Positions 6,077 to 8,703 of a DNA stretch of 64,000 bases are shown piece by piece. Position 1 is the first letter of the stretch. Each line of letters begins with the position of its first letter. Source of the stretch: Candidatus Latescibacterota bacterium (GTDB lineage Bacteria > Latescibacterota > UBA2968 > GCA-2709665); NCBI GenBank assembly GCA_965208835.1, contig OZ242358.1, positions 2,528,001 to 2,592,000 on the forward strand. Direction: 5' to 3'. The translations under genes were made by a program, and so were the position numbers. The notes beneath the pieces were generated by a model. The model was not told where the DNA came from and did not search any database. It saw only the letters and a program-made list of their open reading frames with translations.

Positions 6077-7153
6077 TTAGTCGACTCTGATTCGCTGCAG
6101 ATCGTATGAATCGACATTGTAGGGTTCGAAGGTATCGTCATCGCCCGGGGTGAATACCGCCACGTACAGATACTGATCGTTGTTGTCAATGGCGATGCCT
6201 CGTTCCCGGAGGTTTCCGGCCGCAAGAAAGTAGTTCGTCTCCAGTTTGGTCTGCGTATCGAATTCAACAATAAACACGCCCGCTTCATCGGCGTCGGTAG
6301 GCGCAACGAATAGCCGGCGGCCGTCGCGGCTCAGCGCGAGCCCCAGTGCGGGGGACTTGATTTCAAATTTCCCCGTCAGCGTCAGGTCGTCGGCGCTGAA
6401 CGCCCAGAGATCCTTCACGAGGCCGCGGTCTTCCGGATCCGCAAGACCCAGATAAAGATGCTCGTTGAAGGGTCCGATGACGAAATCGTTGATCCTGGCT
6501 GAGAAACTGAAACGGGTGGAGGTGGTCTCCGTGGTGGGGAAATGACCGGAAGCATCGTATTTCAGAACGTTGTTTCTGGCTGCAACAAAGAGCTTTCGGT
6601 CTCCGTGATTCATCTGAAGTGCGCCGGAGCGCACATTTCCGCTGGTTTCCCGATTGTCGACAATCGACACTGCAATCAGCAGCGGTTCATCCAAAGAGGA
6701 AACATAGACAATCGAGTCGGTTCCGCAGACAATATGGGAAATGTCATTGAGGGAATAAGGGACCGTCTTCACGAGGGCGAACGAATTCAGGTCGATGACT
6801 TTGAGGTTCGATTCTCCGTTCAATCCCACCACCAGATGGCGTTGGTTCGGCGTGATGTCGAGGTCGATCGGGTGGGAACCTACCTGAAGGCTCCCGTCGA
6901 CCGTCATCTGGCTGCCAAGGTGGATGCGAAGTATCCGGTTGTTACCATAGTCGGCAAGATACAGATATGGCTGGTTCGGATCCATGACCATATCGGAGAT
7001 ATTCACGCCGAGTTCCAGGATTTCGAAATCTTCAATCTTGTAGAATTGTTCCGGCTCTTCGTCGTCAAGATAGAGCGAACAGCCCGGCACAAAGAGGATT
7101 GCAAACAACACGAAAAAGACGAACCGGCGGCTTGTTGTTCCAATTCGGTCCAT
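6077..7153 (-). CDS. YncE-like beta-propeller lipoprotein
   Basis: Hydrophobic N-terminus with lipobox VPGC; repeats such as YLYLADYGNNRI, VGSHPIDLDITP and LALSRDGRRLFVA. Start reassigned to ATG 7153 because the ORF-track extension runs through a repeat element. Confidence 0.75.
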   Translation of the reverse strand: MDRIGTTSRRFVFFVLFAILFVPGCSLYLDDEEPEQFYKIEDFEILELGVNISDMVMDPNQPYLYLADYGNNRILRIHLGSQMTVDGSLQVGSHPIDLDITPNQRHLVVGLNGESNLKVIDLNSFALVKTVPYSLNDISHIVCGTDSIVYVSSLDEPLLIAVSIVDNRETSGNVRSGALQMNHGDRKLFVAARNNVLKYDASGHFPTTETTSTRFSFSARINDFVIGPFNEHLYLGLADPEDRGLVKDLWAFSADDLTLTGKFEIKSPALGLALSRDGRRLFVAPTDADEAGVFIVEFDTQTKLETNYFLAAGNLRERGIAIDNNDQYLYVAVFTPGDDDTFEPYNVDSYDLQRIRVD

Positions 7154-7167
7154 GCCGGATCGCCTGA

Positions 7168-7328
7168 CAGTCCGTTGAATAGAGTCGCTCTGGAGGCGAG
7201 GCCGAGCCATTGTGGTCGAAGACAAGGCTCGCGACCGAGTCCCATCCTTCGATTCGGCGAGGGAGCGCAACGAAGGTTTTCGACCGCAAGGGCCGGGCGC
7301 AGCCCGGATGGTCTGTTTCAACGGGCTG
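7168..7328. mobile_element. MITE-like palindromic element (family B)
   Basis: Terminal inverted repeats CAGTCCGTTGAATA / TTTCAACGGGCTG; internal arms TTGTGGTCGAAGAC / GTTTTCGACCGCAA; abuts the TAG stop of the upstream gene. Confidence 0.7.
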
Positions 7329-8294
7329 CTAGAGCGAGAAAGCATATGATGTGCTCAGCTCTATAAGATAGTCCGATGTCAGCTGGCTCTCGTTCACGTT
7401 TTGAAATACGACAATGGGCAGGTGAAATTCAACGCTCAAATTATCCAGTACATTGACCCCCAATTCAGGCGAAAGATACATCCACTTGCCTCCGCGTTCT
7501 CTGGTAATCTGGCCGAACTGGTAACGGTCCCTCGAGGTGATCAGATTTTTCAGACTCACTCCGCCATACAACCAGCCTTCACCTTCGTACTCCAGCGAAA
7601 GGCTTGCGTGCAGTTCATTGCCATATTTGTAGCCGTAGATGTTCTGTCTCGAGGTGATACGGGAAAACACGCCCGCCGATACCGAAATGGTCTCAAATTG
7701 ATGATGCACATTGAGCGCGAAAACCGGGTCCACACTTCCTGAGCCGATCTGCAGATTGTCGGCGAAACGCACGCCGTACCGGTCCTTGGCATCTACGGAA
7801 CCGTTTGCCAGCTTCAGTCCAACGCCGAGATTCACCCCGGGGAGACCCGCCGCGAGGGGTGCGGCGTAATTCAGCATGGCCACGATATCGCCAAGACCGG
7901 AAGCATGCCGGACATACTTTCCGCCTTCATACTGGTTGGGGTTCTGTCCGCGCAACAGCACCTTTTCGTTCGTAACTGAACGGAAGGGTACGGCCAACGC
8001 AAGACCGATGTGCTCCGTCACGCCCAGGGAAGCGAACAGGGTGGTTGTGGCATTGTCCGTTCGCTCGCGATTGACGTTCGGTATGGCGCGGGACCCGTAG
8101 TGGGGGTCGGACAGGAATTCGTAGTCGTAATGTACACTGAGCTTCAGCTGATCCTGTACGGCCAGACCGTTTTTCATCAGGCTCCCGCCCGGGAGCACGG
8201 GCCGTCGTCAGCTGACACCACCCTGAGCGTGGGCGGCGGGCGCCGCAATGGTTCGCGCCACGAAACACAGTAAGAGTACCGCGAACGTCCGCAT
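7329..8294 (-). CDS. Outer-membrane beta-barrel ('transporter'/MetA-pathway-like) protein with in-frame TGA at codon 29; candidate selenoprotein
   Basis: GAGGA SD and ATG 8294 give signal peptide MRTFAVLLLCFVARTIAAPAAHA, then QGGVS-TGA(8210-8208)-RRPVLPGG, in frame with the 289-aa ORF. That ORF has SGLGDI, LKLANG, LQIGSGSVD, alternating beta strands and a C-terminal TSYAFSL. Confidence 0.75.
8181..8196 (-). promoter_or_regulatory. Putative bacterial SECIS hairpin
   Basis: GCUCCC-GGGC-GGGAGC perfect 6-bp stem beginning 12 nt after the in-frame UGA, with a G-first apical loop. Confidence 0.6.
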
Positions 8295-8462
8295 TCGGGT
8301 TTTCCTCGATCCGAAAGTTGTGAACTCGCTCCAAGCGTCCGGTTTTTCGGGTTGAAATATACCTTACATGCGCCCGGATAGCAAGGCGGATTTTCTTTCG
8401 TGAGTTTACATAGAGCTCAAATTTACAAATCTTTACACAACCATTTGTCGCGCCGTTTTTGC

Positions 8463-8535: not shown

Positions 8536-8609
<74 letters not shown>

Positions 8610-8625
8610 TATTACATCAGCTTGT

Positions 8626-8703
8626 GGTGGGTGTAGCTCAGATGGTTAGAGCGCCTGGTTGTGGCCCAGGAGGTCGGGGGTTCAAGTCCCCTCACTCACC
8701 CCA
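8626..8703 (+). tRNA. tRNA-His(GTG)
   Basis: G-1 plus GTGGGTG/CACTCAC acceptor; CCTGG-TTGTGGC-CCAGG anticodon arm; C discriminator; encoded CCA. Confidence 0.95.

Follow-up and report, generated by a model that had tools for sequence, protein, structure and literature searches.

A single gene in the stretch of DNA analysed here is proposed to encode a secreted outer-membrane β-barrel of the COG4313/FapF type, with selenocysteine (Sec) encoded by the UGA at codon 29. The stretch, referred to below as the window, comprises 64,000 nucleotides (nt) from a Candidatus Latescibacterota bacterium (GenBank assembly GCA_965208835.1, contig OZ242358.1, positions 2,528,001 to 2,592,000), and the gene lies on its minus strand, running from 8294 down to 7329. 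We assign this interpretation a probability of about 0.88. On the comparative sequence evidence presented below, insertion of Sec at the UGA is in itself very likely. An earlier note, made from the letters of the window, had suggested that the UGA is read as Sec at residue 6 of the mature barrel. This suggestion is supported by the conservation of the TGA, by the presence of the sel genes, by independent assemblies, and by the fit of an adjacent hairpin to the model for bacterial selenocysteine insertion sequences (bSECIS).

The gene is laid out as follows, all features being on the minus strand. A Shine-Dalgarno-like GAGGA (8303..8307), read directly from the sequence, is located 8 nt 5' of the ATG at 8294-8292. 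The ATG opens a signal peptide of 23 residues, MRTFAVLLLCFVARTIAAPAAHA (8226..8294), which ends in AHA. This is followed by QGGVS, the TGA (8210-8208), RRPVLPGGSLMK, an open frame of 289 residues, and a TAG stop that is likewise read directly (7329..7331). The TGA is the only one in frame between the signal peptide and the barrel. It is codon 29 of the gene, and would thus place Sec at residue 6 of the mature protein, with the peptide RRPVLPGGS directly after it. The mature protein is predicted from AlphaFold2 and Foldseek to be a β-barrel of 298 residues (7332..8225), in which approximately the first 25 residues form a segment before the first strand and carry the Sec. It would contain one Sec and no cysteine. 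Read with translation table 11, the same frame yields only an open reading frame (ORF) of 289 residues (7329..8198), which starts at a GTG and has no signal peptide. The hairpin GCUCCC-GGGC-GGGAGC is found at 8196-8181, its first base being the 12th nt after the UGA. Each of the elements listed in the earlier note, from the ribosome binding site and the signal peptide to the single TGA, the hairpin, the shortened ORF and the Cys-free mature chain, is indeed present in the sequence.

The TGA is conserved. A six-frame search over 61 related genomes located the barrel gene in all 14 of the other genomes of the genus, and also in a second genus. There are two copies per genome, an orthologue with 77-95% identity and a paralogue with approximately 50%. 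All 33 full or partial matches, which come from genera g1 and g5, contain exactly one TGA, in orthologues and paralogue alike, and it is located directly after AQ[GP]GVS. In all of the orthologues it is preceded by a variable leader that resembles a signal peptide and ends AxA-Q.

The same is seen over a much greater distance. A scan at one genome per species gave 72 loci, making 105 genome loci in total with those found earlier. Of these, 96 contain a stop in frame, after which come the motif R-R-P-x-L-P-G-G and a long open frame. The 96 motif-bearing loci reduce to 64 distinct sequences, and the stop is TGA in 64/64. They are found in Latescibacterota (some of them deposited as Gemmatimonadota), KSB1, Calditrichaceae, Fidelibacterota/Marinimicrobia and the FCB group, and the residues on either side of the TGA, VS-U-RRP, are fixed across these phyla. 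The nine genome loci without the motif are one partial match (L111), six whose N-termini cannot be aligned (L116-L120 and L123), and two distant homologues of full length (L114 and L115), in which the TGA column is occupied by Pro and there is no stop. A metagenome scan gave a further 71 loci, with TGA in all 64 that include the N-terminus; the other seven lack that region.

An in-frame stop in a single sequence looks like a nonsense mutation, and the gene might on that account be a pseudogene, or the TGA a sequencing error. However, the TGA is conserved across phyla in a frame that is otherwise intact and under purifying selection. Contigs from four other sequencing runs, belonging to four studies, span 8188-8224, and among the differences listed for these contigs there is none at 8208-8210; the nearest of those listed, at 8220, is synonymous. 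Since the TGA is kept both across phyla and in independent runs, we regard a pseudogene or an error as effectively excluded.

It is also conceivable that the TGA is a true stop, with the upstream frame forming a leader peptide or an upstream ORF, and with the barrel translated from a downstream start such as the GTG at 8198. This corresponds to the ORF obtained with table 11, and gene callers place the starts of the relatives at assorted downstream codons. The barrel would however be left without a signal peptide, and yet in each of the 96 motif-bearing loci a signal peptide in the same frame immediately precedes the TGA. Nor are the downstream starts conserved. Almost all of the 67 homologous proteins in the databases begin just after the TGA or further in, as is typical where a gene finder calls a stop, and the start positions differ among entries, some being more than 100 residues into the protein. 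A true stop is in our view extremely improbable.

There are 11 full-length database versions of the protein, and these have Trp at the Sec column in nine cases, Ser in two and Cys in none. The nine entries with Trp (P0038, P0039, P0056 and P0083-P0088) all come from contigs of 1.3-2.8 kb. In P0085 the 30 residues before the Trp are those before the TGA in locus L139, and P0039 in addition continues through another stop, located further upstream, which locus L095 contains. Trp was rejected as the real residue on these grounds. The entries appear, from their sequences, to stem from gene calling on short AT-rich contigs in which TGA was read as Trp, in the manner of genetic code 4; the metagenome mode of Prodigal includes code-4 models. 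The earlier note had considered that homologues with Trp at this position would speak for a nonsense mutation. Such entries do exist, but the Trp in them appears to be a miscall of TGA. The two Ser proteins (P0015 and P0019) are both singleton clusters, to be compared with 101 distinct sequences that have TGA. No homologue has Cys in this column, against the two database proteins with Ser and the two distant homologues with Pro.

The genome has the machinery for Sec insertion. The selA and selB genes are adjacent (C1:3536666-3539724) and are adjoined by the gene for tRNA-SeC, which is the sole tRNA of the genome with a tca anticodon. The selD gene is present and is itself a selenoprotein gene. 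All four of the genes named in the earlier note (selA, selB, selC and selD) are therefore accounted for. The genome also contains prfB, encoding release factor 2 (RF2), and therefore UGA is otherwise a normal stop. SelA is found in 16 of 17 relatives that hold the barrel, the exception being G018, and in 4 of 5 barrel holders from other phyla. It is near-universal in the class, occurring in 57 of the 61 relatives with or without the barrel, and its presence therefore shows only that what Sec insertion requires is in place.

The hairpin that follows the TGA (8181..8196) has a folding energy of -11.2 kcal/mol, and its RNA also codes for the peptide (V)LPGGS. The hairpin 18-mer taken alone gives a z score of -2.78. 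Covariation was analysed in an alignment of 61 sequences, 59 of them distinct. The five pairs of the stem show standard pairing in 295/295 cells. Only one pair, 24-33, is freely synonymous, being formed by the third base of the Leu codon and the third base of the second Gly codon. In the 59 distinct sequences this pair is CG 37 times, UA 18 times, UG twice, and AU and GC once each, and is never unpaired, a degree of pairing that was not matched in any of 500 shuffles. RNAalifold gives an identical helix. In the larger set of 157 loci, comprising 101 distinct sequences, the same pair is CG in 57, UA in 32, UG in 6, AU in 4 and GC in 2, and all four types of Watson-Crick pair are thus present.

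The choice of codons in the stem, examined in the same 101 sequences, differs from that in the rest of the genes. The stem Leu is encoded by CUN in 101/101, compared with 66% for other Leu codons of the same genes. The stem Ser is encoded by AGY in 82/82, compared with 38% elsewhere, and where the residue is Arg it is encoded by AGA in 15/15, compared with 36% AGR elsewhere. In two loci from metagenomes, L170 and L173, the Ser is replaced by Thr and one stem pair is lost. The loop is AGGU in 43 sequences, GGGC in 38, GGUC in 10 and others in the remaining 10. Judged by these comparisons, the hairpin is selected at the RNA level.

The published bSECIS model has a loop of 3-9 nt with a G in its first two positions, usually followed by G or U, a stem of 4-16 base pairs (bp), a distance of 16-37 nt from UGA to loop, and a minimum free energy of -7.5 kcal/mol or below (PMC13188914). 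The barrel hairpin agrees with this model in its loop (GGGC, 4 nt), in its spacing (17 nt), in its folding energy, and in its stem, with 6 bp in the window gene and 5 bp across the family. The claim that it is a SECIS element thus gains support. A comparison within the same genome is provided by selD (G000:C1:4401300-4402223), which has its own in-frame TGA, followed by a hairpin with a 7-bp stem and a GGUC loop. In both genes a 4-nt GG[U/G]C loop occupies nt 21-24, with the U of the UGA as nt 1, and a G+C-rich stem begins 10-11 nt after the UGA. Ten members of the barrel family have exactly the GGUC loop of selD. The two elements differ in the length of the stem, which is 7 bp in selD and 5-6 bp in the barrel gene, and in that the barrel stem is tied to the peptide LPGGS.

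These results bear on a further explanation, namely a programmed read-through independent of SelB, in which a near-cognate tRNA inserts Trp, Cys or Arg, the hairpin acts as a stimulator, and no Sec is made. TGA is only one base away from TGG, TGC/TGT and CGA, there is no Cys homologue to mark a classical Sec/Cys pair, and the hairpin is small. One would however expect to meet the ordinary codon of the inserted residue somewhere, and yet the 64 distinct genome sequences and the 64 metagenome loci all have TGA. Moreover, the hairpin matches both the bSECIS model and the geometry of the selD element, tRNA-SeC is alone among the tRNAs in having a tca anticodon, and the genome encodes RF2. We consider read-through of this kind to be very unlikely.

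AlphaFold2, run with an alignment of 46 sequences, predicts a barrel with a mean predicted local distance difference test score (pLDDT) of 85.5 and a predicted template modelling score (pTM) of 0.83. The best Foldseek match in the Protein Data Bank (PDB) is FapF (5o65, E 2.3e-13, template modelling (TM) score 0.67), and there is a match to the COG4313 channel Pput2725 (4rl8) with TM scores of 0.69/0.76. At the sequence level, the read-through protein has no Pfam match at E<=1 and matches none of the families of NCBIfam release 20.0, selenoprotein models included, at the same threshold. A sequence profile search of the PDB gave chance matches only, with E about 1. The cut-off for the Pfam family PF13557 (Phenol_MetA_deg) is passed by two of ten relatives, with weak matches for two more, and also by a Planctomycetota homologue discussed below (L124, 31.3 bits). 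The precomputed Pfam column gives PF13557 for eight of the ten closest orthologues, as well as for P0018 and P0068. Given that the window protein has no Pfam match of its own while some relatives are above the cut-off, these searches suggest that it is a divergent branch at the edge of the PF13557 family. Its assignment to the COG4313/FapF structural type is well supported by the modelling.

With the COG4313/PF13557 channels the protein shares the barrel fold and the segment before the first strand. It differs from them in sequence, the identity to 4rl8 being only 10-11%, and in having a predicted N-terminal Sec, a SECIS element within the coding sequence, and a β-propeller lipoprotein as partner. 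FapF is a 12-stranded barrel which is gated by an N-terminal element. Although it is the top structural match, its identity to the window barrel is 13-15%, it has no Sec, and no fap genes were seen beside the window gene. In Pput2725, the N-terminal segment of about 14 residues is described as folding into the lumen from the periplasm, where it nearly closes the channel, and members of COG4313 have been linked to hydrophobic compounds (PMC4493636).

The partner is encoded by the next gene (6077..7153, minus strand). It is a lipoprotein, with the lipobox LFVPG-C, and is predicted to be a seven-bladed β-propeller; it matches Lactonase in Pfam with E 1.6e-6, and lactonase/YncE-like clusters in the Atlas. 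A gene for this lipoprotein is found directly downstream of the barrel in 44 of the 64 distinct loci, across phyla. Among 26 loci in which the gap between the two genes was checked, 22 have a value of -8 to +68 nt, and in many loci the distance from the barrel stop to the lipoprotein start is -8 to +2 nt. The 20 loci without the partner are the paralogue clade (mostly with short flanks), L021 (at a contig end), L022 and three distant loci. The pairing of the genes is well supported by these comparisons. A Cys in the lipoprotein as partner for the Sec was considered and rejected. An alignment of the lipoproteins shows no invariant Cys besides the lipidated one of the lipobox, and there is therefore no obvious partner for a selenenyl-sulfide bond.

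In the window the two genes are separated by a spacer (7154..7328, minus strand), which holds one copy of an interspersed repeat of approximately 160 nt, found by BLAST with 156 matches in the genome. The lipoprotein match of some congeners instead begins about 10 nt after the barrel. In four other runs, contigs are 20 to 260 times deeper at 7300-7336 than in the neighbouring sequence. On the other side of the gene, upstream of the barrel promoter region and on the opposite strand, are genes for tRNA-Arg(tct) and tRNA-His(gtg), at 8536-8703 (plus strand).

The paralogue in the same genome (C1:1991349-1992281; locus L196, G000:C1:1989306-1993075) is approximately 50% identical to the window barrel and has the same TGA and hairpin. 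Its neighbours are an NHL-repeat propeller lipoprotein upstream and an S-adenosylmethionine methyltransferase downstream, the latter with a weak TehB-like match.

The mature chain also starts with a TGA-containing motif in three distant homologues (24-27% identity). Those from Myxococcota read C-P-G-TGA and C-A-G-TGA at this N-terminal site. The C-A-G-TGA sequence is from a metagenome-assembled genome of the Myxococcaceae (L122:1153-2595), and in the same open frame has a C-terminal thioredoxin-like domain with the motif WCGAC. The Planctomycetota homologue (L124 / L197:8794-10746) reads TGA-P-G-TGA, both of the stops being TGA. Its gene is preceded by that of a MerR-family regulator, for which the best NCBIfam matches are MerR, ZntR and CadR, which are sensors of heavy metals, all below their cut-offs. 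The regulator has three Cys spaced 35 and 9 residues apart, which we take to resemble the spacing in mercury-responsive MerR. No mer genes occur within the 18 kb around this homologue; its neighbours are LptD-like, EamA, phosphorylase, cyanophycin synthetase and similar genes. As far as can be judged from these sequences, the distant homologues point to a chalcogenolate site in reduced form, which would bind a soft metal or take part in redox chemistry. A putative mercuric transport family with the motif C/SxxU and a UxxU metal-binding family are listed among the known selenoproteins (PMC13188914, Table 1). The distant barrel homologues resemble these in having CxxU or UxxU in the N-terminal position that the Sec has in the window barrel. 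The metal-handling proteins are however unrelated to the barrels in sequence, and the window barrel itself has one Sec, no Cys and no mer genes nearby.

On the basis of these observations we hypothesise that SelB, carrying Sec-tRNA(Sec), would recognise a minimal SECIS, with a stem of 5-6 bp and a loop of 4 nt (NG[G/U]N), placed 17 nt after the UGA as in the selD of this genome. The hairpin would itself be translated, as Leu-Pro-Gly-Gly-Ser/Arg, and this peptide would be frozen across phyla because the RNA of the hairpin doubles as coding sequence. Cleavage by signal peptidase would then produce a mature N-terminus QGGVS-U-RRP, with one selenol and no cysteine. By analogy with Pput2725, the segment before the first strand would fold into the barrel lumen from the periplasmic side, so that the selenolate would lie within the translocation path or at its mouth; we infer from the same analogy that Sec is located in the path of transport. 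There the selenolate may bind or react with a thiophilic cargo, such as a soft metal, a metalloid or an electrophile, which would pass the channel together with the co-encoded β-propeller lipoprotein, although we attach low confidence to this step. In the absence of selenium, translation would stop after a harmless leader of 28 residues. The earlier idea of a metal-binding or redox-gated plug has its support in the analogy to the COG4313 channels, and the N-terminus of the model is of low confidence.

A more specific version of this hypothesis is that the selenolate, on an N-terminus inserted into the lumen, forms the active element of the channel. The channel would then serve as an uptake device of the outer membrane, capturing the cargo through a reversible Se-X bond, either covalent or coordinative, and handing it to the lipoprotein. 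The cargo could then be Hg, Cu or As, a halogenated or otherwise electrophilic organic compound, or selenium itself. We put this forward as a tentative and rather doubtful possibility.

The chemistry of the selenol might alternatively be non-essential. In that case Sec would be inserted but would have a mainly regulatory role, tying synthesis of the channel and the coupled lipoprotein to the supply of selenium. The UGA at codon 29 comes right after the signal peptide, and a failure to decode it yields a harmless short peptide. The close spacing of the lipoprotein start to the barrel stop in many loci would permit coupling, two database relatives have Ser at the Sec position, and neither the barrel nor the lipoprotein offers a Cys partner. 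A role of this type does not however account well for the position of the residue and its VS-U-RRP context being fixed across phyla. It is also opposed by the presence, at the same site in distant homologues, of CxxU and UxxU, which are typical chemical motifs, in one case with a fused thioredoxin domain. The Ser variants are moreover two singleton clusters, set against the 101 distinct TGA sequences. A mainly regulatory role is unlikely on balance.

Several points weigh against the proposal of a secreted barrel with Sec at codon 29. The fold of the hairpin in the single sequence is not exceptional in its G+C-rich context, with z scores of -0.72 (76 nt) and -0.38 (41 nt), and the case is therefore made by comparison. 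The conserved peptide dictates four of the five pairs in the stem, and the covariation therefore rests on one pair and on the choice of codons. The hairpin sequences are in addition related, and are thus not independent trials; their kinship inflates the shuffle tests. There is no Rfam match on window positions 7900-8400 at E<=10. No homologue with Cys at the Sec column is found among the full-length database versions or the loci, and nearly all selenoproteins have Cys homologues, on which most search methods rely (PMC13188914). SelA was not found in G064, G070 and G018, all of them metagenome-assembled genomes, of which G018 is 80% complete. The selenol would be alone in the periplasm, with no evident redox partner. 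Residues 1-20 of the model have a pLDDT of 47-57, and so the position of the Sec is ill-defined, while the hints on function come from single loci at 24-27% identity which do not have the lone-Sec form. Finally, no RNA-seq run is listed as containing this stretch.

The UGA-decoding barrel would represent a new selenoprotein family. A 2026 review tabulates 119 prokaryotic selenoprotein families (PMC13188914). There is no COG4313-type channel in that table, and PF13557 and phenol are absent from the text of the review. Searches of the literature likewise turned up no paper in which the barrel family is described as a selenoprotein; the supplementary tables of the surveys behind the review might list it. 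The earlier note had held that outer-membrane selenoproteins are lacking among the classical bacterial families. This has to be corrected, as there are predicted precedents, namely the FCYXU type of TonB-dependent receptor (NF049945) and GSU2204 / MtrB-PioB (NF041027) (PMC13188914, Table 1). These resemble the window protein in being outer-membrane barrels predicted to contain Sec. They have however other folds and belong to other families, and the window protein matches neither of the two hidden Markov models in the NCBIfam scan. In addition, their Sec is in a CxxU or haem-motif context, whereas the window barrel has a lone Sec after the signal peptide. The proposal of an undescribed selenoprotein family is thus upheld by the lack of a match in NCBIfam and in the table of the review, and on this comparison of sequences we rate the window barrel as a new family of outer-membrane selenoproteins.

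Selenoproteins are under-annotated because the UGA is called as a stop. In the present case almost every database entry examined is an N-terminally truncated 'transporter' or hypothetical protein without a signal peptide. The family is also ill-suited to standard searches for selenoproteins, having no Cys homologues that would allow Sec/Cys pairing, and a tiny SECIS that doubles as a conserved peptide. We infer that these two features are the reason why it was overlooked.

The finding would add a family of outer-membrane selenoproteins and a clean case of dual coding, in which one stretch of RNA serves both as a signal and as protein sequence, and it gives a specific target peptide for metaproteomics. 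The family is spread over several phyla of the FCB group, Marinimicrobia included, and most of the related metagenome contigs are from collections with marine names. If the selenol is functional, it would represent an unknown surface chemistry in uncultured marine bacteria. Should the capture of cargo through an Se-X bond prove true, then the cell surface of abundant marine bacteria (Marinimicrobia/SAR406 and Latescibacterota) would be a site of selenium chemistry.

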